Origin: an uncultured Solirubrobacterales bacterium
Lineage (GTDB): Bacteria; Actinomycetota; Thermoleophilia; Solirubrobacterales; JBBDJG01
Assembly: GCA_963774075.1 (NCBI GenBank)
Contig: CAVZDP010000003.1
Span: 408,062 to 472,061 of the forward strand
Length of the DNA: 64,000 nucleotides
Direction of reading: 5' to 3'
A model generated the notes under the pieces. It had not been told where the DNA came from and did no database searches. It was given only the letters and a program-made list of their open reading frames with translations. A program made the translations under genes and the position numbers. This document shows positions 6,602 to 41,125 of the stretch, piece after piece. The stretch's first letter is position 1, and each line of letters opens with the position of its first letter.

Positions 6602-6608
6602 ACAGTAG

Positions 6609-14700: not shown

Positions 14701-14797
14701 CGATCGATTATCCCCCTCTGCGCGCAAATGGGAGGCGGGCTGCCGCCGACCCGGATATGCTCCCCGGCCGGGACGCCAGGCACGGCCCCCCGCTCGG

Positions 14798-15340
14798 ATG
14801 GAGACCCCCGGATTCACACTCTGGCTCACGGGCTTGCCGCGTTCGGGCAAGTCGACCGTCGCTGGCCTCGTCGCCGGGCGGCTGCGGGCGATGGGCATCG
14901 AGCAGGTCGAGCTGCTCGACGGTGACATCATCCGCGAGGGGCTGTGCAGGGACCTCGGGTTCTCGCGGGAGGATCGCGAGGAGAACATCCGCCGCATCGC
15001 CTTCGTGTCGAAGCTCCTGACGCGCAATCGTGTAGCGGTCATCGTCGCCGCGATCTCGCCCTACAGGGAGAACCGCGAGCTCGCGCGCGAGGAGATCCAG
15101 TCCTTCGTCGAAGTCTGGTGCAAGGCCTCGGTCGAGGCCTGTGCCGCGCGCGACTACAAGGGCCTCTACGAGAAGGCGATGAGAGGTGAGATCGACAACC
15201 TCACCGGGGTCAACGATCCCTACGAGGAGCCGGAGGACGCGGACCTCGTGCTCGACACCGTGGGCGAGAGCCCCGAGGAGAGCGCCCAGCGGGTGATGGA
15301 CGTGCTGGTCGGCAGGGGTCTCCTCGGGCCGAGGCCCTAG
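14798..15340 (+). CDS. cysC: Adenylyl-sulfate (APS) kinase, copy 1
   Basis: 180 aa. It reads FTLWLTGLPRSGKSTVAG (P-loop), LLDGDIIREGLCRDLGFSREDREENIRRIAFVSKLL and VIVAAISPYRENR, the hallmark CysC motifs. Over a 145-residue core I count 11 substitutions versus the copy at 58540-59082. Confidence 0.95.
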   Translation: METPGFTLWLTGLPRSGKSTVAGLVAGRLRAMGIEQVELLDGDIIREGLCRDLGFSREDREENIRRIAFVSKLLTRNRVAVIVAAISPYRENRELAREEIQSFVEVWCKASVEACAARDYKGLYEKAMRGEIDNLTGVNDPYEEPEDADLVLDTVGESPEESAQRVMDVLVGRGLLGPRP

Positions 15341-16252: not shown

Positions 16253-17416
16253 TCATTCCCTTCGCAGGGCGAGCAGCCTGCAGGCGTCCTCGTCGACGAC
16301 CACGCTCGAACGCCCCTGGAGCTGGTGCCTGAACGCCTCTCGCTCCTCGAGCCACCGAAACGTCGCAGGCGAAAACAGGATATATCCCGCTCCTCGCCTG
16401 TAGAGCTCATCCAGCGCCGAGCTCTCGTCGACCGCATCCGCGGGAGGGAAGTGAAGCGCCGTCCTGCCGTCGAGTCCGGTGATCTGCTCCAGCACACGGT
16501 CGTCGCCGCCGGACGCGACGAGGACCGTGCTCTCGGGTGGCGTGAGCGTTCGCACGACCTCACGTATGCGTCCCAGGTGGCCTCCCGGCCGCTGGGAGTC
16601 GAAGTCTTCGAACACCGCCTCTTCCCGCGCGGCGTAGATGCCGATGTTGTCGATGCCGGCTCCAGATCCCGGCGCCTTGTACCAGGGCCCGTGGCGGATG
16701 GCGGAGAGGCCCGCCCACTCGAGCATGCGCGCGAGGACCGCAGGGCCGGTCGGGTACCACTGGAGCCCGTGCACTCCCGAGAGCAGGCGAGTACGCGACT
16801 CCTCTCCGGCCACCAGGGCGCCATCGGGAAATCCGCGGCGGCTGGCGGTGCTGAGGATCATGAGCTCGCCGGTCAGGTCGGCGGCGATCCGCAGACCCTC
16901 GATCGGGTCCGGGAGGTGGTAGAGGATGCCGCGGAAGAGCACGACGTCGAAGCGCTCCAGCTCGAGCGCCGGGACGTCGTACAGGTCGCAGACCTCGAAG
17001 CGGATCCCGTCGCTCGGCGCAGACCTCGCCCGGCTGAGGAAGCGCGCCTGCTCGATCCAGTGCTCGCGTACGTCGAACCCGAGGCACTCGCCAGCGCCCA
17101 TCTCCCTTGCCAGGAACAGGTAGGCGCCGCAGTTGCAGGCGCAGTCGAGGACGCTGCGCCCCTGCAGACCGGTCGGGAAGAGGCGCTTCATCAGCCACCT
17201 GAACCCCGGCCCGGGGTCGTAGAACGCCCCAGGCGTCGAGGCGGCGACCGGCTCCAGGAAGTCCCTCGTGCCGAGGCGGCCGGTGATCTCCACGTTGAGG
17301 TGCCAGGGACGAAGCCGCTCGCCCTCGCGCAGCAGTGACGCTTCGGCGGCGTCGGGGCTCGCCTCCAGCGCGTCGGCGCCGGATCCCGGCGGGGGCTCAG
17401 GCCGCGACGGGTGCAC
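16253..17416 (-). CDS. SAM-dependent methyltransferase (CmoB/DUF1698-like core) fused to the C-terminal WWLD-type domain
   Basis: The methyltransferase part is GRSVLDCACNCGAYLFLAREMGA..RFDVVLFRGILYHLPDP. The C-terminus is STVLVASGGDDRVLEQ..ALHFPPADAVDESSALDELYRRGAGYILFSPATFRWLEEREAFRHQL..ACRLLAL. The GTG start at 17416 overlaps the upstream gene's stop by 20 nt, and a later start is possible. Confidence 0.8.
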   Translation of the reverse strand: MHPSRPEPPPGSGADALEASPDAAEASLLREGERLRPWHLNVEITGRLGTRDFLEPVAASTPGAFYDPGPGFRWLMKRLFPTGLQGRSVLDCACNCGAYLFLAREMGAGECLGFDVREHWIEQARFLSRARSAPSDGIRFEVCDLYDVPALELERFDVVLFRGILYHLPDPIEGLRIAADLTGELMILSTASRRGFPDGALVAGEESRTRLLSGVHGLQWYPTGPAVLARMLEWAGLSAIRHGPWYKAPGSGAGIDNIGIYAAREEAVFEDFDSQRPGGHLGRIREVVRTLTPPESTVLVASGGDDRVLEQITGLDGRTALHFPPADAVDESSALDELYRRGAGYILFSPATFRWLEEREAFRHQLQGRSSVVVDEDACRLLALRRE

Positions 17417-19298
17417 CGCGCGCGGGCGTCTGCCCGTGGGTGGGCGCCGCCATCAGCTCTTCGATCAGCGCCCGCCAGCGGTGCGTCTGCAGCCACGCGT
17501 TGTAGCGGGTGGCGAGCCAGCGATACTCACTGGCAGTCGGGTAGGACTGCTCCTCGAGGTGATAGAGCTCGGCCGCCGGCAGGTACCAGTTCTGGCGCCC
17601 GAGGCGGATCAGGCTCAAGCAGAGGTCCGAGTCCTCGTAGCCGCCCTGCACGTACGAGTGGTCGAAGCCGCCAACCTCCTCGAAGAGGGCCCTGTCGATC
17701 ATCATGCACGCTCCCGTCACCGCCGGCACTGGTCGCGCGACGTTGGCAGGCGCGAAGTTCCTCGCGAGCCCCTTGAGGTAGTGCTGGTTGCCCCACAGGG
17801 AAGTCGCCGCGTCGAGCTGGAAGAACATGCCCGCATGTTGGAGTGAGTGGTCCTCGTAGAGGAGCTTCGAACCGAGTGCCCCGATGTTCGGCGTCGCGTC
17901 GTAGAACGCCGCCATGCGGGAGATCCAGCCCGGCCGGGCGGGCAGCACATCGGAGTTCACGAACAGGAGCGTTCGTCCCCGGGCGATCGAGGCGCCGAGG
18001 TTGTTGGCGATCGCGTAGCCTCCGTTGCGGCTGAGGATCGCGACACGGAACGGAAGCCCGTAGAACTCGTGCAGGTCCGCGGCGACGCTGTTGAGGTCGC
18101 GGGCGAGCTCCGGCGAGTCCAGCACGTAGAGCAGGTCGACCGTGCCGATCTCCCGATCGTGTACGAACTGCGCCATCTGGTGCTGAAGGAAGTCGATCCG
18201 CTCGTAGAACGGCACGACGACCGAGACCGTCGGCGACTGCGGTTGGGTCCCGTACTCGATGACGGTGTCGACCTCGACCGACCGTTGCAGCCGCTCCTGT
18301 AGCCGCGACAGGGCTGGGTGAGCGTGCGTCTCGGTCAGCCGATGCTGGAAGTCGTCCTCCTTCGTGTCCCTGAGGATCAGCTCGCGAACCGCGACGAAGT
18401 CCCGAATCACCTCTGGGGTGGCGCCCTCCGTCCCACCTCCCCCGGCGGTCTCGAGCTTCGTCAGCCACCCGGTGGAGAGGCGGCTTGGCGCTGCCAGCTC
18501 GAAGCAGCTCATGAGCCCGTGCTTCTCGGACGTCTCCATGCCGGCGCTGCCATAGGCGTGCTCGATGTCGGGGCGCCCATAGCGGAATGCGTCCTGCAAC
18601 AGCTCCGTCGCGAACCCCTCGGGCGAGACGGCGATCAGCCCGGTCGCCGCCTTCTTCTCGTCTCGGATCCAGCCCCTGATCCAGAATGCGCGATCGTCAA
18701 TCGCCATGATGCGATCGACGTCGTGGTTCAAGGGCTCGTCCGCCGTGCTCACGCGCTCGCGCCCTCGCTCGCGCAGGATCTCGCGCAGGCCCAGCAGGTT
18801 CGTCGCGAGGGTGCCGGCGTCCGCGCCGTCGAGGTGCGGGGCGCAGGCCTCGAGGACGAGCTCGTGCAGCTCCCGCCGCGCGGCCGGCTCCAGGGGCGAA
18901 AGCCGAGCGCCGAGCGCCTCGTCGACCAGCCGGGGTGAGGCCTGCAGCTCGGCCGGGCCCAGGACGAGCGTCGACGGGCCCGAGCGTAGGACGAGCTCGT
19001 TCACGCCCGCGTCGCGGGCGCCTCGCGGAAACTCGACGATGGCGAGCATGCTCACGCTCGCGCCCCCCGCGACCTCGTGACGACGATAGCGCTGGGCGAA
19101 GATGGCGACCTCCGCATCGCCGCCCTCGAGCTTCACTCGAGCACGTACGACGCGCGAGCTGCCCAGATCGCAGACGACGAGCAGCAGATCGTCGTTCAGC
19201 CACGCCGCGCCCGAAAGCGTGCCGTCGCTACGGCGCCGGAACAGTCGGCCCGGCGCCCGGACGAGGTTGCGCAAGGTCGTGGAGAGCCGCTCGAACAT
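17397..19298 (-). CDS. Two-domain glycosyltransferase: unknown ~340-aa N-terminal X domain plus C-terminal GT2 domain (X-GT2 paralog 1 of 4)
   Basis: The GT2 part is VSVVVPFYERIDFLQHQMAQF..LLYVLDSPE..NGGYAIANNLGA..FVNSDVLPARPGW..LLYEDHSLQHAGM..GGYEDSDLCLSL. The N-domain shares IMAIDDRAFWIRGWIRDE..GLIAVSPEG..FRYGRPDI..GW with the ORFs at 24378, 29887 and 34099. Confidence 0.85.
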   Translation of the reverse strand: MFERLSTTLRNLVRAPGRLFRRRSDGTLSGAAWLNDDLLLVVCDLGSSRVVRARVKLEGGDAEVAIFAQRYRRHEVAGGASVSMLAIVEFPRGARDAGVNELVLRSGPSTLVLGPAELQASPRLVDEALGARLSPLEPAARRELHELVLEACAPHLDGADAGTLATNLLGLREILRERGRERVSTADEPLNHDVDRIMAIDDRAFWIRGWIRDEKKAATGLIAVSPEGFATELLQDAFRYGRPDIEHAYGSAGMETSEKHGLMSCFELAAPSRLSTGWLTKLETAGGGGTEGATPEVIRDFVAVRELILRDTKEDDFQHRLTETHAHPALSRLQERLQRSVEVDTVIEYGTQPQSPTVSVVVPFYERIDFLQHQMAQFVHDREIGTVDLLYVLDSPELARDLNSVAADLHEFYGLPFRVAILSRNGGYAIANNLGASIARGRTLLFVNSDVLPARPGWISRMAAFYDATPNIGALGSKLLYEDHSLQHAGMFFQLDAATSLWGNQHYLKGLARNFAPANVARPVPAVTGACMMIDRALFEEVGGFDHSYVQGGYEDSDLCLSLIRLGRQNWYLPAAELYHLEEQSYPTASEYRWLATRYNAWLQTHRWRALIEELMAAPTHGQTPARGAPVAA

Positions 19299-19310
19299 GG
19301 CGTGGGCCTC

Positions 19311-20606
19311 TCAGCCGGTCAGCACTGGCTCTCGGCGCAGAGTGAGCAGGTCGTCATACAGCTGACTGAGGTTCGCCGTGTGCTCCTGCATGGTGTAGAC
19401 GGGCTTGATCCCGGCGTGGAGCTGCTCCCACAGGCCCGGCGTGTCCACAGCTCTCTGGATCGTGTCCGCGAGGTTCTGCGGGTTTCCGACGCGAAAGTGA
19501 AGCCCGTCCACCCCGTCGGTGACCTTCTCCGCCATTCCCCCGACGTCGCTGCAGATCACAGGCCTGCCGTGGAGGAACGCCTCCTGGATCACCAGCGGCG
19601 AGTTCTCCCACCACAGGGACGGAACCACGATCCAGTCGGCTTCGCTCATGAGCCCCGCGACCGCCGCGCGGCTGTAGGCGCCGCGGTTGGCGACCGTCGG
19701 TCCCGCCTCCTGGAGCAGGTTGTGGAACGCGCCCCTCCAGTGCTCGTGCTGCAGCTCCAGGTTGGCCGCGTGGAGCGAGAGCTGGATGTCCTGCCGGATC
19801 CCACGCAGTCGCGCCATGGCACCGAGCAGAACCTGCAGACCCTTGTAAGGGTTGGCCTGGCCGAAGAACGCGAGCCGGTTGCGCGGTCTCGGCTGCCCCT
19901 CGTCCGGCGCCGGCACGCGCGGCTCCGGCCAGCGCCCGTAGTCCTCGAACCGAATTCGCTCGCGCGGGAGTCCCCAGTCGACGTAACGCTCGAGCAGGAA
20001 ATGGCTCGGCGCGAGGAACGTGTCGACGTGCTCGAAATGCGACCGGGCGAAGCGCTCTCGCAGAAAGAACTGCTGAGGAGGGATCTCCGGAAAGCACTCG
20101 TTACAGCGCCGCGGCGACCACTGGAGGCACAGCTCGCCGCTCGATCTCTGGAGCTGCCCCTGACGATGGCAGATCGGGAGGTATTCGTGCAGCGTGTAGA
20201 CGATGGGCACCTCCGGCAGGACGCGCCGAGTGAGCGAGACCAGGTCGATCCCCATGAAGAACGTGTGCTGGAAGTGGACGACGTCGGGTTTCTCCGAGCG
20301 GAGGAACTCGGCGAATTTGTTTGTGTACTGCGACTTCTCCCGCAGGGTCATGAGGAAGAAGTCGAAGTGCGCCTCCTCCGTGAAGAAGAAGTGTTGATTT
20401 TCGTCGTCGTTTATGTTGCTGAACGGGGCGCCCGCGTGTGACGTGCGCGGCTTCGACACGTCGTTGCCCAGCCTTGCCATGAGCACGGGTTGGTACTCCT
20501 GCGATTCCCGCATCGCCTCGTAGAGCTCGAGTGCATATGACTCGGATCCGCCAGGACGGATCGACGGGTGGTTGTGGAGTATGTAGAGGACCTTCTTCTT
20601 GCTCAT
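19311..20606 (-). CDS. GT4-type (GT-B) glycosyltransferase with a Cx13Cx7Cx2C insert (paralog 1 of 6)
   Basis: An in-frame ATG at 20606 gives MSKKKVLYILHNHPSIRPGGSESYALELYEAM. It continues PDVVHFQHT..LHEYLPICHRQGQLQRSSGELCLQWSPRRCNECFPE..FFGQANPYKG..VVPSLWWENSPLVIQEAFLHGRPVICSDVGGMAEKV..GLHF (an EX7E-like GT-B C-terminal motif). Confidence 0.85.
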   Translation of the reverse strand: MSKKKVLYILHNHPSIRPGGSESYALELYEAMRESQEYQPVLMARLGNDVSKPRTSHAGAPFSNINDDENQHFFFTEEAHFDFFLMTLREKSQYTNKFAEFLRSEKPDVVHFQHTFFMGIDLVSLTRRVLPEVPIVYTLHEYLPICHRQGQLQRSSGELCLQWSPRRCNECFPEIPPQQFFLRERFARSHFEHVDTFLAPSHFLLERYVDWGLPRERIRFEDYGRWPEPRVPAPDEGQPRPRNRLAFFGQANPYKGLQVLLGAMARLRGIRQDIQLSLHAANLELQHEHWRGAFHNLLQEAGPTVANRGAYSRAAVAGLMSEADWIVVPSLWWENSPLVIQEAFLHGRPVICSDVGGMAEKVTDGVDGLHFRVGNPQNLADTIQRAVDTPGLWEQLHAGIKPVYTMQEHTANLSQLYDDLLTLRREPVLTG

Positions 20607-20831
20607 GTGAGACGCACGCCCAAGCGGGACGTTAGCCACTCCGGCAGGCGCATCGCCAAGCCCGCGTCGCGTTTCACCAGACGCTGCCGCGGCGACGCGC
20701 CGGCGCTCCTGGAGAGCTCTCCCCCCGCCTTTGTGCGGTGCGGCGGGCCCAAATCGGTCGATTAGACTATACATCGAGAAGTAAGGCGGACTGGGCGGCT
20801 CTGGCGCCGGATCGGGAGCGGTAGGTAAGGC
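20607..20831. promoter_or_regulatory. Divergent intergenic region (225 nt) between the minus-strand GT4/X-GT2 pair and the plus-strand cassette array; candidate bidirectional promoter region
   Basis: This is the largest non-coding gap in the core. It contains the only clearly A/T-rich patch (aaatcggtcgattagactatacatcgagaagtaagg, ~20751-20787). That patch has TAGACT (20763-20768, plus strand) and TATAGT (complement of 20766-20771, minus strand) as -10-like TAnnnT hexamers. No convincing -35 element. Confidence 0.35.
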
Positions 20832-21731
20832 TTGCAATCAGGAGGGGACGGGAGCGGTTCGGCTCAGCTGAGCGCAGAGGAGCGCGACCGTGTGCTGGGG
20901 CGGCTGGGGGAAGTGGTACGCACCCACGTGCCGGCGAATACGCCGGTCGCGGTGGTGAGCGATGGGGACAAGGCCTTCGTCGAGATCGAGGGAGCCAACG
21001 CCCTGCACTTTCCGTCCGCGGAAGACGGTGGGCACGCCGGCCGGCTCCCGGCGGACGGAGCGGAGGCGGTCGAGCTGGTCGAGCTCCTGCGGCGGCGCGA
21101 CGTCCAGTACCTCACCTTGCCGAGCCAGGCGTTCTGGTGGCTCGAACGCTATCCGGAGCTGAACCAGCACCTCATCAAGCGCTACCAACTCCTCGCCAGC
21201 GAGGACGCCTGCCTCCTCTATCGCCTCGTCGAGCAGCCCCGGCAGGCCACCGGGCAGGGTGGCCACCCCGCTGCCGACCCGCGCCTCCTGCAGCCCATCA
21301 GGGACCTCCTCGACCACCTCCTCCCGGCACGGACCGCGGTGGCAGTCATGACGCTCGGCGAGGCAGCTCCACTCCCCGGCGTCCAGGCGTGGCAGTTCCC
21401 GCGCGCCGCCCGGGAGGACCTGGGCCTCGCCGCCGGCCACCTGGCTGCGCTCGAGGCGGGCGGCGTGGAGTTTCTCGTAGTGGCGAGGCCTGAACGCGAA
21501 TGGCTCGAGCTTCACCCGGGGCTGCTCGATTACCTGCGCACGCACCACCGCCTGACGACGAGCCAGGAACACCTATGCGACGTGTACGAGCTCTCCGCTC
21601 CGGTCTCGAACGACCCCGTCCCGGACCGGCCGGAGGAGACCGCGCAGCAGCCGAGCCCGGCTCGGCGCACGCCCGTCACGCGCCTGCTGGATCGAGCCCT
21701 TCGCCCGGGCACCGATGGTAACGACCGTTAA
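20832..21731 (+). CDS. Standalone tandem WWLD-domain protein (tD1): two copies of the ~95-aa domain, the second degenerate
   Basis: Copy 1 is VAVVSDGDKAFVEI..HFPSAEDGGHAGRLPADGAEAVELVELLRRRDVQYLTLPSQAFWWLERYPELNQHLIKRY..CLLYRL. Copy 2 is VAVMTLGEAAPL..FPRAA..GHLAALEAGGVEFLVVARPEREWLELHPGLLDYLRTHH..LCDVYEL. The TTG start at 20832 is inferred because the paralogs conserve the region from SAEERDRV onward. Confidence 0.7.
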   Translation: MQSGGDGSGSAQLSAEERDRVLGRLGEVVRTHVPANTPVAVVSDGDKAFVEIEGANALHFPSAEDGGHAGRLPADGAEAVELVELLRRRDVQYLTLPSQAFWWLERYPELNQHLIKRYQLLASEDACLLYRLVEQPRQATGQGGHPAADPRLLQPIRDLLDHLLPARTAVAVMTLGEAAPLPGVQAWQFPRAAREDLGLAAGHLAALEAGGVEFLVVARPEREWLELHPGLLDYLRTHHRLTTSQEHLCDVYELSAPVSNDPVPDRPEETAQQPSPARRTPVTRLLDRALRPGTDGNDR

Positions 21732-23037
21732 CGCCAGGCCGAAGGTCCTCTTCGTCTGCCACAACCACCCGGCGATCCGTCCGGGGGGCGCCGAGGGCTA
21801 TGCGCTGGACCTGTACGAGGCGATCGGCCTGGCGGGAGAATTCGAGCCGTACTTCCTCGCGCGTGTAGACAACGACCAGCGAGAGGCTCTCTCGCATCAC
21901 GAAACGACGCCGATCACGGGGGTACAGGGCGATCCGAACCAGTACTTCCTGTTCACCGACCTGTCGCAGTGGGACTGGCTCTTCGGCAGGTACCCCGACA
22001 AGACGCCACTGGTCCCGTTCTACCGTGATTTCCTGCAAGCGCTCAAGCCGGACGTCGTCCATTTCCAGCACACCGTGTTCATCGGCTACGACATTCTGCG
22101 CGTGACACGAAACGCGTTGCCGGACTCGCCGATCGTGTACATGCTGCACGAGTACATGCCAATTTGTCTGCGCGGGGGGCAGCTGGTGAGGGTGCATGGG
22201 GACGACCTGTGTCAAAAGGCCTCGCCGCGACGCTGCCACGAATGCTTTCCCAACCTCAGCATGCCCGAGCTCTTCATGCGCGAGCGTTTCGTCAAGTCGC
22301 AGCTGGCGCTAGTGGATTTGTTCCTGACGCCGAGCGCGTACGCCAGAGAGCGCTACATCGACTGGGGCCTGTCAGCCGACTCGATCCGAGCCGTCGAGCA
22401 CGGACTGCGGCCCGTTCAGAGGCTGCCGGAGACCAATGAGGAACGGCCCCGCAACCGCTTTGCGTTCTTCGGCCAGTTCACTCCCACCAAGGGCGCCGAC
22501 GTCTTCCTCGAGGCGGTGAAGCGGCTGGGCGACGACTTCGACGGCCACGTCTGGTTCCACGGCGCGAATCTCGAGGTGCAGCCGCCCGACTTCAGGGAGC
22601 GGATCGAACGGCTGCTGGAGGCGACGGGCGGAAAGGTCAGCATGAGAGGCTCCTATGACCATTCGGGCCTCGCGAAGCTGATGAACCAGATCGACTGGGT
22701 CGTCGTGCCGTCGATCTGGTGGGAGACCGGGCCGCTGGTCGTTCCGGAGGCGTTCCTGTACGGAAGGCCGGTCATCTGCAGCGATATCGGGGGGATGTCC
22801 GAGCGGGTGACCTCCGGGGTCAACGGGCTGCACTTCCGCCGGGCCGATCCGGACAGCCTGGCAGAGGCGATGCTGAAGGCTTCCCGCACTCCCGGGCTGT
22901 GGGAAGAGCTGAGGGCGGGGATCCCGCCGGTGCAGACCATGGAACAGCACGCCGAGCTGGTCGGCGGCATGTACCGTGAGCTTCTCGCCGGACGGCGCGC
23001 AACCGTCGCTCCCGCCGTGCCGAGCACCTCCGCATAG
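21715..23037 (+). CDS. GT4-type glycosyltransferase with Cx13Cx7Cx2C insert (paralog 2 of 6)
   Basis: It reads KVLFVCHNHPAIRPGGAEGYALDLYEAI..PDVVHFQHT..LHEYMPICLRGGQLVRVHGDDLCQKASPRRCHECFPN..FFGQFTPTKG..VVPSIWWETGPLVVPEAFLYGRPVICSDIGGMSERV. The start overlaps the upstream stop by 17 nt. Confidence 0.9.
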   Translation: MVTTVNARPKVLFVCHNHPAIRPGGAEGYALDLYEAIGLAGEFEPYFLARVDNDQREALSHHETTPITGVQGDPNQYFLFTDLSQWDWLFGRYPDKTPLVPFYRDFLQALKPDVVHFQHTVFIGYDILRVTRNALPDSPIVYMLHEYMPICLRGGQLVRVHGDDLCQKASPRRCHECFPNLSMPELFMRERFVKSQLALVDLFLTPSAYARERYIDWGLSADSIRAVEHGLRPVQRLPETNEERPRNRFAFFGQFTPTKGADVFLEAVKRLGDDFDGHVWFHGANLEVQPPDFRERIERLLEATGGKVSMRGSYDHSGLAKLMNQIDWVVVPSIWWETGPLVVPEAFLYGRPVICSDIGGMSERVTSGVNGLHFRRADPDSLAEAMLKASRTPGLWEELRAGIPPVQTMEQHAELVGGMYRELLAGRRATVAPAVPSTSA

Positions 23038-23068
23038 CCGATGCCCAACCCGCTCGAGGAATAGGTCG

Positions 23069-24385
23069 ATGTCCAAGCCCAAAGTTCTCTACGTCGCCCA
23101 GAACCATCCCGAGGTGCGCCCAGGCGGAGCCGAGGGCTATGCGCTCGACCTCTATCACGCGATGCGCCGCATCGGCGAATTCGAGCCGATCTTCTGCGCG
23201 CGTACCGGGCCCCCGATCTCGAAGGTGAAGCGAACCCTCACCGGTGCCCCCTTCACGGCCGCGAACGAGGATCCGAATCAGTACTTCTTCTGGACCGACC
23301 TCACGCACTACGACTGGTTCTACGGGCGTCCGCCCGACAAGTCGATACTGACGAGGTTCTTCCGCGACTTTCTGCTCACGCACCGGCCGGACGTGATCCA
23401 CTTCCAGCACACACTGTTCATCGGCTACGAGGCCGTTCGGATCGCGAGGCGAACGTTGCCGGACACCCCAATCGTGTACATGCTGCACGAGTACCTGCCG
23501 ATCTGTCATCGCGACGGGCAGATGGTCCGCACGCTCGAGAACGACCTCTGCCAGCTCGAGACCCCGCATCGCTGCCACGAGTGCTTTCCGGAAACCAGCC
23601 CGCAGACCTTCTTCGCGCGCAAGCGCTTCATCCAGTCTCAGCTTCGTCACGTCGACGTGTTCATCGCTCCGAGCGAGTACGTGCGCGAGCGCTATGCCGC
23701 CTGGGGAATTCCCGCGGAGAAGATCAGGGTCGAGCCCTACGCCTGCTTCCCCGTCGCAAAACTGGAGACGGACGACCACCAGGGGCCACGAAACAGATTC
23801 GCCTTCTTCGGTCAGTTCACCCCGTACAAGGGCGCTGACGTTCTGCTTCAGGCGATGGCGCAGCTCGGTGACGACTTCGGCGGCCATCTCTGGATCTACG
23901 GCGCCAACCTCGAGACCCAGCGCCCGGAGTTTCGCGAGATGTTCGAGTCCATGCTCGAGGCCACCGGGCGCACGGTGACGTTCGCGGGCCACTACGACCA
24001 CGCCGACTTGCCGAAGCTGATGGAGCGGATCGACTGGGTGGTCGTGCCGTCGATCTGGTGGGAGACGGGGCCCATCGTGGTGCTCGAGGCGTTCCAGTAC
24101 GGGCGCCCCGTCATCTGCAGCGACATCGGCGGGATGTCGGAGAAGGTCACCCACGAGGTCAGCGGACTGCATTTTCGCCGCGGGGATCCGGCCAGCCTTG
24201 CCGAGGCGATGCGTCGGGCCGTGGAGACGCCTGGCATCTGGGACACCCTGCGTACCGGGATCCCCCAGGTTCCGATGATCATGGAGCACGCGCGGGTGCT
24301 GTCGGATCTCTATCGAGATCTGCTTGCCGCGCGCCGGACGCGCCAGAAGGCGGGCCTCGAGACGGTTGGAGCCACCGATGACTGA
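23069..24385 (+). CDS. GT4-type glycosyltransferase with Cx13Cx7Cx2C insert (paralog 3 of 6)
   Basis: An in-frame ATG at 23069 (MSKPKVLYVAQNHPEVRPGGAEGYALDLYHAM) is preceded by GAGGAA. It continues LHEYLPICHRDGQMVRTLENDLCQLETPHRCHECFPE..VVPSIWWETGPIVVLEAFQYGRPVICSDIGGMSEKV. Confidence 0.9.
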   Translation: MSKPKVLYVAQNHPEVRPGGAEGYALDLYHAMRRIGEFEPIFCARTGPPISKVKRTLTGAPFTAANEDPNQYFFWTDLTHYDWFYGRPPDKSILTRFFRDFLLTHRPDVIHFQHTLFIGYEAVRIARRTLPDTPIVYMLHEYLPICHRDGQMVRTLENDLCQLETPHRCHECFPETSPQTFFARKRFIQSQLRHVDVFIAPSEYVRERYAAWGIPAEKIRVEPYACFPVAKLETDDHQGPRNRFAFFGQFTPYKGADVLLQAMAQLGDDFGGHLWIYGANLETQRPEFREMFESMLEATGRTVTFAGHYDHADLPKLMERIDWVVVPSIWWETGPIVVLEAFQYGRPVICSDIGGMSEKVTHEVSGLHFRRGDPASLAEAMRRAVETPGIWDTLRTGIPQVPMIMEHARVLSDLYRDLLAARRTRQKAGLETVGATDD

Positions 24386-26240
24386 CGCGGCGACCTCCTC
24401 CCGCGAGCGCCGGCGCGGGAGGCAACGGCAACAGCGCGCCGGCGGCGTGGCGGCGCTCGGCCCCCGGGTGCTGGTGGCGGTCGGAGAGCTCGCGTCCACG
24501 CGGGGCTCCGAAGTGGAGCTCGCTCAAGGGCGAGAGCGGCTCGAGGCCGAATGTCACATGCTCACGTTCGAGCGCCCCGACCCGGACGGCAGCCCCGAGC
24601 CGGCTCAGCTCCTGTGTGCCGTGATCACCTCCGAAGACTGGGACGTCAACTCCCAAGGGCCGGTGACGCTTACGGCGAACGGGAGCAGCTTCGAGCTCGA
24701 CCCCCGCGCTCAGCTGCAGGCAGCCCTCGGAGCGCTGGTCCGCCGTGACCTCGCCCCTCTCGACGGGCGAACCCGCAACCGGATCAGCGACTTCATGGCA
24801 CGCGCGTGCGCGTCGGCGCTCGCTGGAGCCGGCGGGCTCCGCGTCAGCGAGCGGCTGTTCTCGCTGCGCCAGGCGCTGCGCGAGCGGCTTCCCGTGCACG
24901 CAAACCAGCCCGAGCATCCGATGGGGCTGTATGCCGATCGCCTGCTCGCGATCGATGAGCGCTCTTATTACCTGCGCGGCTGGATGCGAGACGAGGCATC
25001 GAGGGCGGTGCGGCTGACCGCGGTGTCCCCGGAGGGTGCCCGCATGGACCTGCTCGACAGGCTCTACCGCTTCCCACGTCCCGATGTACTCGACTTCTAC
25101 TCCGGGCTCGGCCGGGCGACGGACACGAGACTCGGCATGCTGTCCTTCTTCGACCTCGGCGTCCCGAGCATGGAACCGGCGGGGTGGATATTGGAGATGG
25201 AGGAGGGGGATGGCGCGGCAATCGAGGTCGCCATTCCCCCCGTTGTCCGCGACCCCGAGGTGGTGCGCAACACGATTCTCGAGGACGCCCTGCGCGAGCG
25301 GCAGCTGGACCGGCGGCTGATGGTCGACAACGTCAAGCCGGCGCTGACGCTGATGCAAGAGCGGCTCGAGCAAACGGTGCGCGTGCGTGCCGTCAATCAG
25401 TACGGAGTCGGGCCCGAATCGCCTGACGTGTCCATCATCGTGCCGCTGTACCAGCACATCGAACACGTCGAGATGCAGATGGCCGAGTTCGGCGACGACC
25501 CGCAGTTGCGAGACGCCGACCTGATCTACGTGTTGGACTCGCCCGAGCAGGCCGACGCGCTCGACTTCACGGCGGGCCAGCTCGAGCAGATCTACGGGAT
25601 CCCCTTTCGAACCGTGGTGCTGGAGCACAACGTCGGCTTCGCCGGAGCGAACAACGCCGGCTTCGGCCTCGCCCGCGGGCGGCTTCTGCTATTGCTCAAC
25701 TCGGACGTCTTGCCGGCACGGCCGGGATGGCTGCGGGCGATGGCGGAGTTCTACGACCAGACGCCAGGCATCGGGGCGCTCGGTCCGAAGCTCCTATACG
25801 AGGACGATTCGATCCAGCACGCGGGCATGTGCTTCCATCAGCCTCCGGGCAGCCCCGACTGGCTCGACGCCCACTTCTTCAAGGGCATGCATCGCACGTT
25901 GCCCGAGGCGAACGTCGCCCGCCCGGTGCCCGCCGTGTCGGGGGCCTGTCTCATGATCGCGGCGGACCTCTACCGGCGCCTTCCGTTGCGTGGCATCTAC
26001 GTCCGGGGAGACTACGAGGACTTCGATCTCTGTATGCGGCTGACCGAGGCGGGTCTGGAGAACTGGTACGTCCCAAGCGCCGAGCTCTACCACCTCGAAG
26101 CACAGTCATACACCAGCCAGCTGCGCGGGCCCACCAACCGCTACAACATGTGGCTCCACACGCATCTGTGGAGCGACACGATCGAGCAGCTCATGAGCTC
26201 CGATCGCTACCGGCCCACCGGCGACCTCAGGCCGACATGA
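24378..26240 (+). CDS. X-GT2 glycosyltransferase (paralog 2 of 4)
   Basis: The ATG at 24378 overlaps the upstream stop by 8 nt (ATGACTGA). The N-domain is LLAIDERSYYLRGWMRDEASRAVRLTAVSPEG..LYRFPRPDV..GWILEME. The GT2 part is VSIIVPLYQHIEHVEMQMAEF..LIYVLDSPE..NVGFAGANNAG..LLNSDVLPARPGW..LLYEDDSIQHAGM..GDYEDFDLCMRL. Confidence 0.85.
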   Translation: MTDAATSSRERRRGRQRQQRAGGVAALGPRVLVAVGELASTRGSEVELAQGRERLEAECHMLTFERPDPDGSPEPAQLLCAVITSEDWDVNSQGPVTLTANGSSFELDPRAQLQAALGALVRRDLAPLDGRTRNRISDFMARACASALAGAGGLRVSERLFSLRQALRERLPVHANQPEHPMGLYADRLLAIDERSYYLRGWMRDEASRAVRLTAVSPEGARMDLLDRLYRFPRPDVLDFYSGLGRATDTRLGMLSFFDLGVPSMEPAGWILEMEEGDGAAIEVAIPPVVRDPEVVRNTILEDALRERQLDRRLMVDNVKPALTLMQERLEQTVRVRAVNQYGVGPESPDVSIIVPLYQHIEHVEMQMAEFGDDPQLRDADLIYVLDSPEQADALDFTAGQLEQIYGIPFRTVVLEHNVGFAGANNAGFGLARGRLLLLLNSDVLPARPGWLRAMAEFYDQTPGIGALGPKLLYEDDSIQHAGMCFHQPPGSPDWLDAHFFKGMHRTLPEANVARPVPAVSGACLMIAADLYRRLPLRGIYVRGDYEDFDLCMRLTEAGLENWYVPSAELYHLEAQSYTSQLRGPTNRYNMWLHTHLWSDTIEQLMSSDRYRPTGDLRPT

Positions 26241-26334
26241 TCGAGCTGGATGTGGCTCCCAGAGCGGTTTTCGGCCACAATGCCACTGTTATACTGACCG
26301 TGAGGTTTTCGGAGCGGAAGGAGTAGAGGCAGAG

Positions 26335-27234
26335 TTGGGTCTTGGCACTGAGGGCCGGACGGATGCGGCCCCTGTTCGTGCTGGGGAATACGAGCAGCTC
26401 GCCGAGCAGATCCGCGAGCTCGCGCATCTACGGATTCCGACGGGAGCGACCGTGGCGGTCGTGAGCCGGGGAGACGAGGTGCTGCTGCAGCTCGGGCGCC
26501 GTAAAGGCGTGCACTTCCCCCAGGACGAGGACGGCAAGTGGGCCGGCTTTCACCCCTCCGACAGCGAGTCGGCCGTAGAGATGCTCGAGCAGGCGCGCGA
26601 GGAGGGCGCCGAATACTTCCTGCTGCCGAGCACCTCCTTCTGGTGGCTCGACTACTACCAGGGCCTCAAGACCCACCTCGAGACCCGCTACCAGGTGGTC
26701 GAGGCGGGCGATTCGTGCTGGATCGTCCAGCTCACGCCAGGAATGGATCTTGCCGCCCATTCAGTCCCCGCGCCCAGTGCCGATACAGAACGCATGACGG
26801 TTGGCCTGAGCCTGCACGAATCGTCTCCGTCGCTGCGCGAGGTCATCGACGGTCTCCTGCCCGAAGGCGCGAAAGTCGGCCTCTTGAGCACCGGCGGCGC
26901 CGGAACTCCCGCAGGGCTGCTCCAAGCGGACCTCGCCGACCCGGAAGCCGCCATCGATCAGCTCCACAACCTGGAGACGGACGGCACCCAGTTCGTCGTC
27001 GTCCCGGGGATGCTCTTCGATTGGCTGGCCGACAACCCCGAGGTACGGCAGCAGCTCAACCGCCATCGCTTCATCACGAAGCAGGCTCATCTCTGCGAGA
27101 TCTACGAGCTTCTTCCGGCCACGGAGGAGCGGCCGCCGCGTGAAAGCGAGGAAACGGGGACGACCAGGACCTCTTTCGGCGAGGTACTACGGCGCATCCT
27201 TCTTCGTTCTCGGCGGCATGGCACCGGTTCCTAG
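26335..27234 (+). CDS. Standalone tandem WWLD-domain protein (tD2)
   Basis: Copy 1 is VAVVSRGDEVLLQLGRRKGVHFPQDEDGKWAGFHPSDSESAVEMLEQAREEGAEYFLLPSTSFWWLDYYQGLKTHLETRY..SCWIVQL. Copy 2 is KVGLLSTGGAG..DPEAAIDQLHNLETDGTQFVVVPGMLFDWLADNPEVRQQLNRH..LCEIYEL. The TTG start at 26335 is preceded by GGAAGGAG..GAGGCAGAG. Confidence 0.75.
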   Translation: MGLGTEGRTDAAPVRAGEYEQLAEQIRELAHLRIPTGATVAVVSRGDEVLLQLGRRKGVHFPQDEDGKWAGFHPSDSESAVEMLEQAREEGAEYFLLPSTSFWWLDYYQGLKTHLETRYQVVEAGDSCWIVQLTPGMDLAAHSVPAPSADTERMTVGLSLHESSPSLREVIDGLLPEGAKVGLLSTGGAGTPAGLLQADLADPEAAIDQLHNLETDGTQFVVVPGMLFDWLADNPEVRQQLNRHRFITKQAHLCEIYELLPATEERPPRESEETGTTRTSFGEVLRRILLRSRRHGTGS

Positions 27235-28537
27235 AGACAAGGTCCTCTACGTCTGCCACAACCACCCGGCGATCACGCCTGGTGGTGCAGAGAGCATTGC
27301 GCTCCAGCTCTACGAGGGCATGCGCGATGCCGGCGAGCTCGATGCGGTCTTCCTCGCCCGCAGCGGTCCTCCCGTCTCCATCACGGCCCGCGTGCACGAA
27401 GGCCGCCCGCTGACGCTCGTCAACGACGACCCGAATCAGTACTTCTTCTACACCGACCTCTCCGATTGGGATTGGCCGTTCGGGCGCTCTCCGAACAAGT
27501 CGGCGCTAACGCGCTTCTTTGCCGACTTCCTCCTGGATCAGGATCCTGACGTCGTCCACTTCCAGCACTCGACGTTCCTCGGATACGACGCGCTGCGGGT
27601 GACGCGTAACACTCTGCCGGACGTGCCGATCGTTTACACGCTGCACGAGTTCCTGCCCATCTGCTTCCACGACGGCAAGCTAGTCAGGACGCGCAACTAC
27701 GAGCCCTGCCTCGAGGCCTCGCCACGTCGCTGCCACGAGTGCTTTCCGGCCATCAGCCAGCAGACCTTCTTCATGCGCGAGCGGTTCATCAAGTCGCATC
27801 TCTCGGTCGTTGACCAATTCATCTCGCCGAGCCGTTTTCTGCGCGACCGCTACGTGGACTGGGGCCTGCCGGCGGAGAAGATCATGGTCGAGGAGAACGG
27901 CCGCCTCGCGGTCGAGAAGCTGCCGCCGACCGAGGGGCGCCGAAACCGGTTCGCCTTCTTCGGGCAGCTCACCCAGTACAAGGGCATCGACGTGCTGCTG
28001 AAGGCGATGGCGCTTCTCGACGAGGCGGAGTTCGAAGCACAGGTCTTCATCCACGGCGCGAACCTGGACTGGGCCCCCGAGGACTTCAAGGACGAGCTCC
28101 TAGCCCTGCTCGACGCCGCCGGGCCGTCGGTGAGCCTGGTTGGAATCTATGAGCCGCACGAGCTGCGCAATCTCATGCAGGAGGTGGATTGGGTCCTGGT
28201 GCCCTCGATCTGGTGGGAGAACTCGCCGCTCGTGATTCAGGAAGCCTTCATGTATGGGCGGCCGGTCATCTGCAGCGACATCGGCGGAATGGCGGAGAAG
28301 GTGACCGACGGCGTCGATGGGCTCCACTTCCGGCGGGCCGACCCGGAGAGCCTCGCCGAGGTGATGCAGAGGGCGGTGACCACGGAAGGGCTCTGGGAAA
28401 GGCTGCGCGCAAACGCCCCGCAGGTCCAAACGATGCGCGATCACGTCGCGACGCTCACCGGGACGTACCGCAGGCTGCTTGCCGACCGCGAGGGGCAGGT
28501 CTCCGAGTCCGACGGCGAGGTGGTGCAGCTTGCATAA
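27218..28537 (+). CDS. GT4-type glycosyltransferase with Cx13Cx7Cx2C insert (paralog 4 of 6)
   Basis: An in-frame ATG at 27218 (MAPVPRDKVLYVCHNHPAITPGGAESIALQLYEGM) overlaps the upstream stop by 17 nt, as at 21715. It continues LHEFLPICFHDGKLVRTRNYEPCLEASPRRCHECFPA..LVPSIWWENSPLVIQEAFMYGRPVICSDIGGMAEKV. Confidence 0.9.
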   Translation: MAPVPRDKVLYVCHNHPAITPGGAESIALQLYEGMRDAGELDAVFLARSGPPVSITARVHEGRPLTLVNDDPNQYFFYTDLSDWDWPFGRSPNKSALTRFFADFLLDQDPDVVHFQHSTFLGYDALRVTRNTLPDVPIVYTLHEFLPICFHDGKLVRTRNYEPCLEASPRRCHECFPAISQQTFFMRERFIKSHLSVVDQFISPSRFLRDRYVDWGLPAEKIMVEENGRLAVEKLPPTEGRRNRFAFFGQLTQYKGIDVLLKAMALLDEAEFEAQVFIHGANLDWAPEDFKDELLALLDAAGPSVSLVGIYEPHELRNLMQEVDWVLVPSIWWENSPLVIQEAFMYGRPVICSDIGGMAEKVTDGVDGLHFRRADPESLAEVMQRAVTTEGLWERLRANAPQVQTMRDHVATLTGTYRRLLADREGQVSESDGEVVQLA

Positions 28538-28538
28538 C

Positions 28539-31743: not shown

Positions 31744-31830
31744 GGCCGGCGCGGGTTACGCGGCCGCAGCCGCGCGTGCAGAGCGGGAAACGGCACGGTC
31801 CCCCAACTAGACTTGAGAGGTGGAGAGGAA

Positions 31831-32781: not shown

Positions 32782-32786
32782 TCGGC

Positions 32787-37948: not shown

Positions 37949-37952
37949 CGGG

Positions 37953-40480: not shown

Positions 40481-40559
40481 TCCGCGCGAGCGAGGCCCTT
40501 GCGGCGAAGGTGCGCAGGGCACGATCCGATGGACCCGACTCCGGGAGAGTGTCGAGCTG

Positions 40560-41114: not shown

Positions 41115-41125
41115 GGCTTGCCGCC

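Follow-up and report, generated by a model that had tools for sequence, protein, structure and literature searches.

'WWLD', a domain of enzymes and stand-alone tandem proteins in glycan-assembly loci of Solirubrobacterales, as a candidate recruitment module

The 'WWLD' domain, a small α/β module found both on glycan-building enzymes and in free tandem proteins, is tentatively read here as a module without catalytic activity that serves recognition and recruitment among the cytoplasmic enzymes of an ABC-exporter-dependent glycan assembly line, a reading to which we assign a probability of roughly 0.4. The evidence comes from a window of 64,000 nucleotides of an uncultured Solirubrobacterales bacterium (contig CAVZDP010000003.1, positions 408,062 to 472,061) and from the homologues of the domain copies that it encodes.

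Where glycans are exported through ABC transporters, the assembly line has to bring its soluble transferases together at the membrane, on a single lipid-linked chain. In the pathways of PMC11231755 and PMC3482155 this is solved by scaffolds of the coiled-coil type and by a carbohydrate-binding module that belongs to the transporter. The 'WWLD' family is large (at least 4,500 clusters), absent from the catalogues searched and modular, occurring on at least five enzyme classes as well as in free putative adaptors; once named, it would lend an annotation to C-terminal extensions and 'hypothetical' proteins in their thousands. It would also flag a conserved and unstudied surface-glycan system, with a probably sulfated and methylated product, in Solirubrobacterales and other abundant soil lineages. 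The domain might also be of use as a portable targeting module for glyco-engineering.

Domain copies, their carriers and the predicted fold

A hidden Markov model (HMM) built from the six motif-bearing copies was run against the six-frame translation of the window and recovered the same six at E-values of 1e-37 to 1e-59, together with three degenerate second copies at about 27 bits each (i-E ~8e-8 to 1e-7). As the next-best match in the window lies at E ~4, there are exactly nine copies, six intact and three degenerate, at the places where a sequence-only reading had first put them. Three of the intact copies are the C-termini of enzymes, and the other three are the first copies (A) of stand-alone tandem proteins. 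When the profiles of copies A and B from 25 tandem proteins were compared by hhalign, homologues with a still intact copy B being excluded, they aligned over 107 columns with 99.4% probability and an E-value of 1.7e-21. This profile-profile comparison, named in the sequence-only reading as a possible refutation, instead proves the homology of the two copies. Missing from the degenerate copies are the GD and HFP motifs, the AGHHP loop and the first of the Trp residues, whereas the P, the W-L and the terminal C-x-[IV]-Y-E-L are retained, in agreement with their earlier description as copies without the signature yet with the terminal pattern.

All six carrier reading frames translate as previously described. 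The first encodes an 832-aa enzyme (4103-6601, plus strand) in which an N-terminal domain of ~440 residues without a family match is followed by a GT2 domain (residues 457-680), and this by an intact copy (6230-6598). Its N-terminal domain matched no PDB sequence, and the best hit of the corresponding profile was a GT-B enzyme at E 0.5. This architecture recurs in 48 of 50 full-size related loci. It is followed by a 510-aa enzyme (6609-8141, plus strand) in which a helical linker joins a GT2 domain (residues 1-220) to an intact copy (7746-8111); GT2-tailed carriers were found in every one of the 50 full-size loci. On the minus strand, a 387-aa SAM methyltransferase (16253-17416) ends in a copy (16256-16588) that is without the 11-residue DG..AGHH hairpin and retains the GD, HFP and W-L-E. 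The three enzyme fusions that had been proposed are therefore real, but they represent two catalytic classes, GT2 twice and SAM methyltransferase once, rather than three. A further reading frame at 8217-8864, considered as a fourth partner, was rejected as an Arg/Pro-rich, off-frame artefact. Hydrophobic or transmembrane segments are absent from the carriers in the window (maximum KD19 ≤1.5), and no transmembrane segment was found in any enzyme of the cluster.

The free form of the domain, likewise anticipated from the sequence, is confirmed in the three tandem proteins tD1, tD2 and tD3. The tD1 gene (20832-21731, plus strand) is a 299-codon reading frame that encodes one intact and one degenerate copy, followed by a basic tail. 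The deposited protein has 279 residues and starts at 20892, 20 codons downstream of a TTG at 20832; the TTG start is supported by the conservation of the N-terminus in homologues. Copy A (20871-21236; HMM E-value 8.7e-54) bears the SDGD, HFP and WWLE-x-Y motifs, whereas in copy B (21282-21611; i-E 8.6e-8 with the HMM from A copies) these are gone and the β2-α2 loop is shortened. A disordered linker then leads to an amphipathic basic segment, VTRLLDRALRP (21675-21707), with a hydrophobic moment of 0.95, in a tail that is conserved in tandem homologues. The best 11-residue hydrophobic moment of such tails averages 0.75 in the family as against 0.59±0.13 in shuffled tails, a modest excess of ~1.2 SD, and their net charge is mostly +1 to +8. 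In the AlphaFold2 (AF2) model the tD1 tail forms a short helix and is otherwise disordered. The second protein, tD2 (26335-27234, plus strand), is organized in the same way, with copy A at 26377-26742, copy B at 26815-27129 and the tail SFGEVLRRILLRSRR; in tD3 (31813-32781, plus strand) the copies lie at 31903-32268 and 32353-32682 and precede the tail SLLARLRSMLPGRR.

The AF2 model of tD1 copy A (pLDDT 95.5) is a five-stranded α/β domain of ~120 residues with the order α0-β1-α1-β2-hairpin loop-α2-β3-α3/α4-β4-β5, in agreement with the small α/β module that had been suspected. The length of ~95 residues first given for it needs revision to ~115-120, because the N-terminal helix is part of the fold. 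A model of the tandem protein contains the same fold twice, copy B having the same order of secondary structure elements, followed by a disordered tail; its pTM of 0.51 means that a confident packing of the two domains against each other is not predicted. In searches of the PDB with Foldseek, neither the single-domain nor the tandem model found anything at E < 1e-3.

The conserved motifs map to specific positions of this fold: S-x-G-D follows β1, H-F-P ends β2, the hairpin loop reads D-G-x-Y-A-G-H-H-P-x-D, and P-x-T-x-x-W-W-L-D-x-Y comes after β3, its W-W-L-[DE]-x-Y portion forming the N-terminus of helix α3, which is followed by a break and helix α4. Among 201 intact copies from 77 loci, G32, D33, H46, F47, P48, G53, G57, P60, P84, W89, W90 and Y94 are each conserved in at least 97%. 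These invariant residues are located at strand ends and in the loop that is deleted in degenerate copies, and they are dispensable for the predicted fold, since the degenerate copies are modelled with the same fold in their absence. That polar and aromatic residues at the ends of strands hardly ever vary argues for a defined pocket. Judged from secondary-structure positions, the invariant residues would cluster in a single pocket along the sheet's C-terminal edge. Degenerate or intermediate copies are found in second position (I,d 15; I,m 13; I,I 9); a degenerate copy always has an intact one ahead of it in its chain and never occurs by itself. The B copies evolve fastest, with 31% mutual identity compared to 45-59% for copies of the A type.

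The family and its conserved locus

The family comprises 4,504 cluster representatives (clusters at 50% identity) in at least six phyla, most of them from uncultured Solirubrobacterales, and the loci nearest to that of the window, also from Solirubrobacterales, are 69% identical over the domain. The partner domains are enzymes of glycan metabolism only, namely GT2, GT4, methyltransferases, sulfotransferases, WbsX and Glyco_trans_1_2, and a short coiled-coil linker often precedes the 'WWLD' domain. It always accompanies enzymes that build or decorate glycans, usually with two to six copies per locus; in a small number of loci, L016 among them, there is only one copy within 16 kb. Multi-copy chains include P0065, with eight matched stretches, and P0066, with four, the latter being a natural fusion of a GT2 domain, a coiled coil, three intact copies, one degenerate copy and a basic tail, and thereby joining a tailed GT2 enzyme to a protein of the tandem type in the manner of a Rosetta stone. 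Family members without any enzyme domain also exist, so that the combination of diverse enzyme attachments with a free form, noted at first in one stretch of DNA, extends to the family at large.

No named family accounts for the domain, as had been surmised: the scans of curated families, the profile search of the PDB and Foldseek all ended without a significant match. Specifically, no model in Pfam-A 2025, NCBIfam r20, PADLOC 2.0 or PHROGs v4 covers the domain region, even at lax thresholds. With whole carriers as queries, GT2 and methyltransferase models match the catalytic parts and none matches the domain region. Ten isolated domains scanned at E ≤10 gave one chance match (E 0.25), and the PADLOC and PHROGs scans gave nothing below E 0.29. 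A profile search against PDB sequences retrieved no natural protein; the sole match at E < 0.05 was a designed TIM barrel, for which no single stretch passes alone. A literature search for the motif or for glycosyltransferases of Solirubrobacterales found nothing relevant.

By its gene content the locus is a conserved system, consisting of an MsbA-like exporter, two 'WWLD'-tailed GT2 enzymes and cassettes of a tandem protein, two GT4 enzymes and a long GT2 enzyme. The exporter gene (1479-3995, plus strand) encodes an MsbA/Sav1866-type half ABC transporter with a Pro-rich C-terminal extension that carries CxxC pairs. Such an exporter is present in 45 of the 50 full-size loci, and in 40/44 loci it lies upstream of the 832-aa-type enzyme on the same strand. 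The first cassette (21715-26240, plus strand) follows tD1 and encodes two GT4 enzymes (21715-23037 and 22976-24385) and a long GT2 enzyme (24324-26240), the ATG of the first GT4 gene overlapping the 3' end of tD1 by 17 nt. The second (27218-31743, plus strand) follows tD2 with two GT4 genes (27218-28537 and 28479-29894) and a long GT2 gene (29887-31743), and here too the first GT4 gene overlaps the tandem gene by 17 nt. The third, after tD3 (32787-35964, plus strand), has one GT4 gene (32787-34106) and a long GT2 gene (34021-35964). A partial cassette in inverted orientation (17397-20837, minus strand; GT4 19311-20837, long GT2 17397-19298) lies upstream of the 'WWLD'-bearing methyltransferase, an arrangement shared with locus L079. 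Two loci outside the window, L078 and L079, have the same tandem/GT4/GT4/GT2 cassette with the same 17-nt overlap, and the cassette is found in ~32 of the 50 full-size loci. From these overlaps, the tandem genes are probably coupled translationally to the GT4 gene that follows. The domain is missing from the GT4 and long GT2 enzymes of the cassettes, and PDB searches with the N-terminal half of the latter gave no match.

Candidate roles of the domain

If 'WWLD' is a recruitment module, every intact copy would recognize the same feature of a partner through the predicted pocket. The tandem proteins, with their intact copy, degenerate copy and basic amphipathic tail, would be membrane-proximal adaptors, each made together with the first GT4 enzyme of its own GT4-GT4-GT2 cassette, and the soluble carriers, i.e. 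the two GT2 enzymes and the methyltransferase, would be drawn into the same assembly by way of the domain. Such a role would be functionally analogous to that of the non-catalytic C-terminal region of WbdD, which combines a membrane-binding amphipathic helix with a polymerase-recruitment site; membrane-associated non-catalytic scaffolds are thus known in ABC-dependent glycan assembly (PMC11231755, PMC3482155). The chain with eight stretches, the stand-alone forms, the P0066 fusion, the apparent coupling to GT4 genes and the basic tails all favour a non-catalytic role, in keeping with the docking, scaffolding or acceptor-binding function first suggested. The restriction of the partners to glycan enzymes, the conserved gene context and the absence of transmembrane segments from the enzymes also speak for the recruitment reading, and the P0066 fusion, the 17-nt overlaps and the synteny hint indirectly that a glycosyltransferase may be recruited physically. 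Against recruitment it can be held that loops at strand ends with strictly invariant Gly, Pro, His, Asp or Trp would be met more often in a pocket for a small ligand or for catalysis than on a protein-protein surface. Moreover, because the cassette GT4 and long GT2 enzymes are without the domain, their recruitment would need a different contact. The loci with a single copy, the low pTM of the tandem model and the modest amphipathic signal of the tails weigh against it as well. For the predicted pocket itself, we judge docking of a protein or peptide somewhat more likely than binding of the nascent lipid-linked glycan, although the evidence fits both.

The latter activity is the core of the foremost alternative, which we consider doubtful: an acceptor-binding or substrate-tethering module, whose pocket would hold the nascent polyprenyl-linked glycan, its pyrophosphate-sugar head group or a repeat unit, so that the domain would keep all enzymes on the same chain and arrays would gain avidity for the polymer. 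The character of the pocket suits this proposal, as the invariant W-W, Y, F, H and D side chains are placed at strand ends and in a flap loop, strand ends being the usual ligand site of doubly wound α/β folds, and all paralogues in a given cell keep the motif, as do family members from at least six phyla. The partner enzymes differ in their donors (NDP-sugars, SAM, PAPS) and share one acceptor, P0065 and P0066 with their eight and four stretches resemble multivalent carbohydrate-binding repeats, and there is a weak structural likeness to the CC unit of oligosaccharyltransferases (PMC3703281). However, the Foldseek search returned no solved carbohydrate-binding module of the same fold, and the stand-alone tandem proteins would still require a protein contact in order to hand substrate to the enzymes. 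Furthermore, the sole glycan-binding module described for the ABC-dependent pathways of PMC11231755 sits on the transporter, with none on transferases. Were acceptor binding nevertheless correct, 'WWLD' would represent a new class of cytoplasmic domain for glycan or acceptor recognition.

An allosteric sensor, in which the pocket binds a nucleotide second messenger or a by-product of the donor and thereby co-regulates the enzymes of the pathway, strikes us as improbable. The model for such a role is PilZ, which regulates cellulose synthase, and the position of 'WWLD' at the C-terminus of GT2 enzymes, its Rossmann-like layout with a Gly-containing loop after β1 and conserved residues ending β2, and the presence of SAM-binding proteins such as the SAM sensor SAMTOR among its weak Foldseek neighbours are all compatible with this. 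In contrast, no model of PilZ, the GGDEF I-site or any other receptor matches the domain, and the methyltransferase-like structural matches are not significant (E ≥0.01, TM ≤0.5). Arrays of intact copies and free putative adaptors would also be unusual for sensors, and the copy fused to the methyltransferase is without the hairpin loop.

Still less credible is a small enzyme (for instance a hydrolase, phosphatase or transferase) that would have an active site of His, Asp and Cys and, as its substrate, the glycan or the carrier of the glycan. D33, H46, H100 and D62 are indeed strictly conserved and C114 is present in 141 of 201 copies, and the degenerate copies lose the candidate active-site residues in the manner of pseudo-enzyme partners. 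Yet C114 is replaced by Gly in 41 of the 201 copies, R104 is variable, the domain has only ~120 residues, and it matches no catalytic family by sequence or fold. With several copies in one chain and six intact ones per cluster, which would be hard to justify for a single step, a catalytic domain is unlikely. Finally, the notion that 'WWLD' is no real domain but a product of compositional bias or chance in GC-rich coding sequence, prompted by a genome of 64-70% GC with many long spurious reading frames, is ruled out for practical purposes by the intact-copy HMM (1e-37 to 1e-59, next match in the window E ~4), the hhalign comparison (E 1.7e-21), the 4,504 homologous cluster representatives and the AF2 pLDDT of 95.5.

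Comparison with known systems

The class I SAM methyltransferase fold has seven strands in the order 3-2-1-4-5-7-6, a GxGxG after β1 and an acidic residue ending β2. 'WWLD' resembles it in a parallel β-α-β core, a Gly-containing loop after β1 and a terminal β-hairpin, and the non-catalytic methyltransferase-like domains considered alongside were the RlmG N-terminal domain and SAMTOR. The best Foldseek E-values indeed belong to proteins of this kind (PrmA, SAMTOR, TrmR and NodS; PrmA with E 0.011 at a query-normalized TM-score of 0.36), all such matches scoring ≤0.50. However, 'WWLD' has five strands, S-x-G-D after β1, H-F-P at the end of β2 and no GxGxG, and no methyltransferase model of Pfam matched the domain even at E ≤10. 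Homology to methyltransferases was rejected on the strength of the strand count, the absent GxGxG and the lack of a significant match. Identity with a PilZ-type cyclic-di-GMP receptor was similarly rejected: PilZ is a β-barrel with RxxxR and D/NxSxxG motifs, whereas 'WWLD' is α/β and has no Pfam match.

Closer in biological context is the carbohydrate-binding module of Wzt, which, like 'WWLD', is a non-catalytic module on a component of an ABC-dependent glycan pathway. This module is a β-sandwich, unlike the α/β model of 'WWLD'. It is situated on the transporter and recognizes the chain terminus, whereas 'WWLD' is found on transferases and free proteins, and the exporter of the present locus has instead a Pro-rich extension with CxxC pairs. 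Recognition of the nascent glycan by the Wzt module takes place in the cytoplasm (PMC11231755).

A further comparison is offered by the CC unit of oligosaccharyltransferases, which is likewise of mixed α/β structure and in which a helix also begins with a Trp-Trp-acidic-Tyr motif. There, the WWD forms the pocket for the Ser/Thr at position +2 of the acceptor, the complete pocket comprising WWDYG, a following helix and, borne by a kinked helix, a DK or MI motif (PMC3703281). Oligosaccharyltransferase chains also gave the top query-normalized TM-scores in Foldseek (6ftg_5 0.56, 7oci_F 0.53 and, at a probability of 0.82, 3vu0_A 0.49), at E-values of 0.04-0.4 that are not significant. The motifs differ, WW-L-[DE]-x-Y in 'WWLD' as opposed to the five-residue WWDYG, and a profile search of the PDB retrieved no STT3, AglB or PglB chain at E ≤10. 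While the CC unit is extracytoplasmic, has 152-181 residues and is fused to a GT-C membrane domain, 'WWLD' has ~120 residues, is cytoplasmic and is fused to GT-A/GT-B enzymes and methyltransferases, with no preceding multi-spanning membrane domain. We see a slim chance that 'WWLD' is a cytoplasmic relative, or a convergent counterpart, of this acceptor-binding core unit, its W-W-x-D-x-Y helix and flap loop forming a hydroxyl or peptide pocket. On that reading, GT-A/GT-B enzymes, methyltransferases and sulfotransferases would share a portable acceptor-recognition module that tandem adaptors supply in trans, which would amount to a new organizing principle for the way in which glycans, or perhaps glycoproteins, are assembled for ABC exporters in uncultured soil Actinomycetota and in other phyla.

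The recruitment reading finds its nearest counterpart in WbdD, since both are non-catalytic parts of ABC-transporter-dependent glycan assembly lines. WbdD draws a soluble glycosyltransferase to the membrane by means of a recruitment site and an amphipathic helix that is membrane-associated (PMC11231755, PMC3482155). The two are related neither in sequence nor in fold: WbdD relies on a long coiled coil, whereas 'WWLD' is a globular α/β domain with a predicted pocket that is attached to several enzymes at once and occurs in arrays, and the exporter of its locus is an MsbA-type half transporter rather than Wzm/Wzt. For its part, the 'WWLD' system has tandem proteins with basic amphipathic tails and enzymes without a transmembrane segment, for which a role in recruitment is predicted.

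Copies, fold and conserved residues of the WWLD domain

An HMM built only from the six motif-bearing copies and run over a six-frame translation of all 64 kb of the window matched these six at 1e-37 to 1e-59, and the second copies of the three stand-alone tandem proteins, tD1 (20832-21731), tD2 (26335-27234) and tD3 (31813-32781), at ~27 bits each (i-E ~8e-8 to 1e-7). Because the next-best match in the window had an E-value of ~4, there is no tenth copy, and the count of exactly nine, at the positions claimed in the sequence-only reading, stands; the translations of the six named ORFs likewise agree with its account. That reading also held the signature-less second copies to be homologous, and had named a profile-profile test beforehand as one means of refutation. 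We cut the tandem-protein alignment into first and second halves, leaving out four homologues with an intact second copy, and hhalign aligned the two profiles over 107 columns (99.4% probability, E 1.7e-21). The claim thus survived, and by profile comparison the degenerate copies are true homologues of the intact ones.

The AlphaFold2 model of a single domain, based on an alignment of 25 sequences (pLDDT 95.5, pTM 0.89), agrees with the small alpha/beta module proposed earlier, and extends the folded unit from the suggested ~95 to ~115-120 residues by including an N-terminal helix. From the N-terminus its elements are a0 (2-19), b1 (25-29), a1 (34-37), b2 (43-47) and a long loop with a small hairpin, followed by a2 (63-75), b3 (80-84), a3 (89-93), a4 (95-104), b4 (106-110) and b5 (114-118). 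In the model of the full tandem protein both halves have an identical secondary-structure order at ~90 pLDDT per half, the linker is disordered, as is most of the tail, and no confident packing between the halves is predicted (pTM 0.51).

All conserved motifs map to the C-terminal ends of strands or to the loops directly after them: b1 is followed by S-x-G-D, b2 ends in H-F-P, the b2-a2 loop holds D-G-x-[YW]-A-G-H-H-P-x-D, and P-x-T-x-x-W-W-L-[DE]-x-Y starts where b3 ends and runs into a3. This topology suggests that the motif residues would form one single pocket. Among 201 intact copies G32, D33, H46, F47, P48, G53, G57, P60, P84, W89, W90 and Y94 are each at least 97% conserved. The degenerate copies have the b2-a2 hairpin deleted and have lost GD, HFP, W89 and Y94; because they are nevertheless predicted to keep the fold of the intact copies, the invariant residues appear to be functional rather than fold-maintaining. 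The 11-residue hairpin is also absent from the methyltransferase-fused copy.

Degenerate and intermediate copies take second place behind an intact copy, with 15 I,d, 13 I,m and 9 I,I arrangements; the copy survey of the related loci found no stand-alone degenerate copy, and eight lone copies scored as intermediate. Copies of the same architecture share 59%, 48% and 45% identity across genomes, different architectural types inside one locus 43-46%, and second copies only 31% with each other. Same-type copies are closer across genomes than are the types within a locus. Together these values indicate old paralogy, with intact copies under strong and degenerate copies under relaxed constraint.

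A new family and its fusion partners

Pfam-A, NCBIfam, PADLOC and PHROGs contain no model that covers the domain, even with isolated domains as queries at E <= 10. In a profile search of all PDB sequences only a designed TIM barrel fell below E 0.05, none of its stretches passing alone; the rest was noise. Foldseek searches of 350,542 PDB chains with the single-domain and tandem models returned nothing at E <= 1e-3 for either; the lowest E-values (0.011 upward) went for the most part to class I methyltransferases, all at TM <= 0.5. First described as unassigned, the domain keeps that status after comparison with four HMM libraries and the PDB.

HMMER, run exhaustively over 1.84 billion cluster representatives, recovered 4,504 proteins at E <= 1e-3, 3,225 at <= 1e-10 and 1,778 at <= 1e-30, with up to 8 matched stretches per protein; two strict peptide patterns alone retrieved 154 relatives from the reference genome set. 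Most of the 77 loci obtained are from Solirubrobacterales and other Actinomycetota MAGs, and some are from Planctomycetota, Verrucomicrobiota, Acidobacteriota, Gemmatimonadota and Chloroflexota. They hold 251 domain matches, typically four per locus.

The three enzyme fusions in the window, an 832-aa enzyme (4103-6601, +), a 510-aa GT2 (6609-8141, +) and a 387-aa SAM methyltransferase (16253-17416, -), were borne out, but not the three enzyme classes: there are only two catalytic classes, GT2 twice and one methyltransferase, with one GT2 fusion bearing an additional 440-residue N-terminal domain that matches no family. Across the 77 loci, 51 carriers have this 832-aa type of architecture (family-less N-terminal domain, GT2, domain), 62 consist of GT2, helical linker and domain, and 39 are tandem proteins. 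Further partners are GT4-type transferases, methyltransferase–domain–DUF3880/Glyco_trans_1_2 and GT4–domain–WbsX proteins, and sulfotransferases. All identified partners are cytoplasmic enzymes that build or decorate glycans.

Two metagenome proteins are extreme members of the family and show that copy number has recently expanded in some lineages. P0065 (1,486 aa) carries eight matched stretches together with a coiled-coil-like N-terminal region and a GT4-type domain. P0066 (927 aa) combines a GT2, a coiled coil, three intact copies, two of which have a long identical stretch in common, one degenerate copy and a basic tail; it is in effect the GT2-tailed enzyme of the window fused to a tandem protein. 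The domain is a new, large family that serves as an accessory module, in a type of pathway already known, and is relevant to glycobiology and protein-family annotation.

The glycan-assembly locus

The window contains an MsbA/Sav1866-type half ABC exporter (1479-3995), present in 45 of 50 full-size related loci and lying upstream of the 832-aa-type enzyme on the same strand in 40 of 44. In its C-terminal extension of ~190 residues (3399-3995, +) a Pro-rich linker of low complexity leads to a small segment that has two CxxC pairs (CDVCGR ... CELCW) and may be a zinc ribbon; the extension bears no similarity to the WWLD domain. The two tailed GT2 enzymes follow (4103-8141). Pfam, NCBIfam and the PDB sequences gave no match to the N-terminal ~440 residues of the first (4103-5437, +); this strongly conserved region (67% mean column identity) occurs in 48 of 50 full-size related loci, and a 13-sequence profile reached only E 0.5, with a GT-B glucosyltransferase. 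It is probably a divergent GT-B domain.

An ORF of 215 codons (8217-8864, +), with an Arg/Pro-rich low-complexity translation and no family match, lies between the GT2 and PKD genes and is probably not a gene; most related loci have a tandem-domain gene in its position. Between the tailed GT2 genes and the cassettes lies a 1,469-aa protein (9000-13409, +) that combines a glucose/sorbosone-dehydrogenase-like beta-propeller with Ig-like domains and several PKD domains (GSDH/PKD protein). It may be a cell-surface protein connected with the glycan system, or a target of that system. An ORF of 533 codons (13441-15042, -) has no Pfam match and is overlapped by several opposite-strand ORFs; near its position the syntenic contig L079 carries an APS kinase (5026-5568).

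The GT4–GT4–~630-aa GT2 module recurs through 16253-35964, three times directly, each behind a tandem-domain gene (20832-35964: tandem protein, GT4, (GT4), long GT2), and once inverted and partial, ending in the domain-bearing methyltransferase (16253-20837: GT4, long GT2, methyltransferase). In each of the four long GT2 paralogues the first ~350 residues (24324-25403, 29887-30930 and 34021-35130, +; 18240-19298, -) have no Pfam match, and the one paralogue compared with PDB sequences gave no match there either; this N-terminal part is a second family-less domain that recurs in the cluster. Cassette enzymes occur in ~32 of 50 full-size related loci, and two independent metagenome contigs, L078 and L079, share the conserved cassette; L079 additionally has the APS kinase, the inverted group and, in the same position, a 1,730-aa counterpart of the GSDH/PKD protein. 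The tandem paralogues of the window are only ~34% identical, and because each has closer orthologues in other metagenomes, the cassette multiplication is old.

tD1 and tD2 each have their stop codon 17 nt into the GT4 gene that follows (21715-21731, 27218-27234), an overlap with the GT4 ATG found identically in L078 (10917-10933) and L079 (10887-10903), which suggests translational coupling; tD3 and its GT4 are separated by 5 nt. No enzyme of the cluster has transmembrane segments. A conserved basic amphipathic C-terminal segment is confined to the tandem proteins, the mean best hydrophobic moment of the tails being 0.75 versus 0.59+-0.13 for shuffled tails.

Three sulfotransferase paralogues (36011-37336, 37938-39335 and 40499-42475, +) follow the cassettes, with homologues in 20 of 50 related loci, and the window holds further GTs and methyltransferases. 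A glycan that is sulfated, and methylated as well, is the probable product.

Function and comparison with known systems

These results show that the domain is a portable module, not tied to one type of enzyme, within a conserved glycan-assembly system. One invariant motif set is shared by the intact copies, and the free forms add to an intact copy a degenerate copy and a basic tail. The docking, scaffolding or acceptor-binding role suggested in the sequence-only reading would be consistent with this evidence. All intact copies may use the motif set as a recognition pocket for one and the same feature of a partner, and the tandem proteins would be membrane-proximal adaptors, made together with the first GT4 of their own cassette. 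Our leading model, with a probability of about 0.4, is that the domain recruits or assembles enzymes via protein or peptide contacts. Three points count against recruitment: Gly, Pro, His, Asp and Trp residues are invariant in a pocket-like manner, the tandem model has a low pTM, and the cassette enzymes lack the domain. That the domain itself binds the nascent glycan or lipid-linked acceptor is a somewhat less likely alternative; a small-molecule sensor is a good deal less probable, and a catalytic function is the least plausible of all.

One structural comparison concerns the CC unit of oligosaccharyltransferase C-terminal domains, a mixed alpha/beta unit in which a WWDYG motif and the helix after it make a Ser/Thr pocket for the acceptor (PMC3703281). 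The W-W-L-[DE]-x-Y of our domain begins a broken helix, and its highest, though non-significant, Foldseek TM-scores (0.49-0.56) go to the soluble domain of oligosaccharyltransferases (STT3, AglB-S2; 3vu0). The domain differs in cellular location and fusion context, and its sequence profile finds no oligosaccharyltransferase chain among PDB sequences at E <= 10. A real relationship, or an equivalent pocket, is a lead rather than a result, and one to which we give little credence.

[quoted passage not shown]
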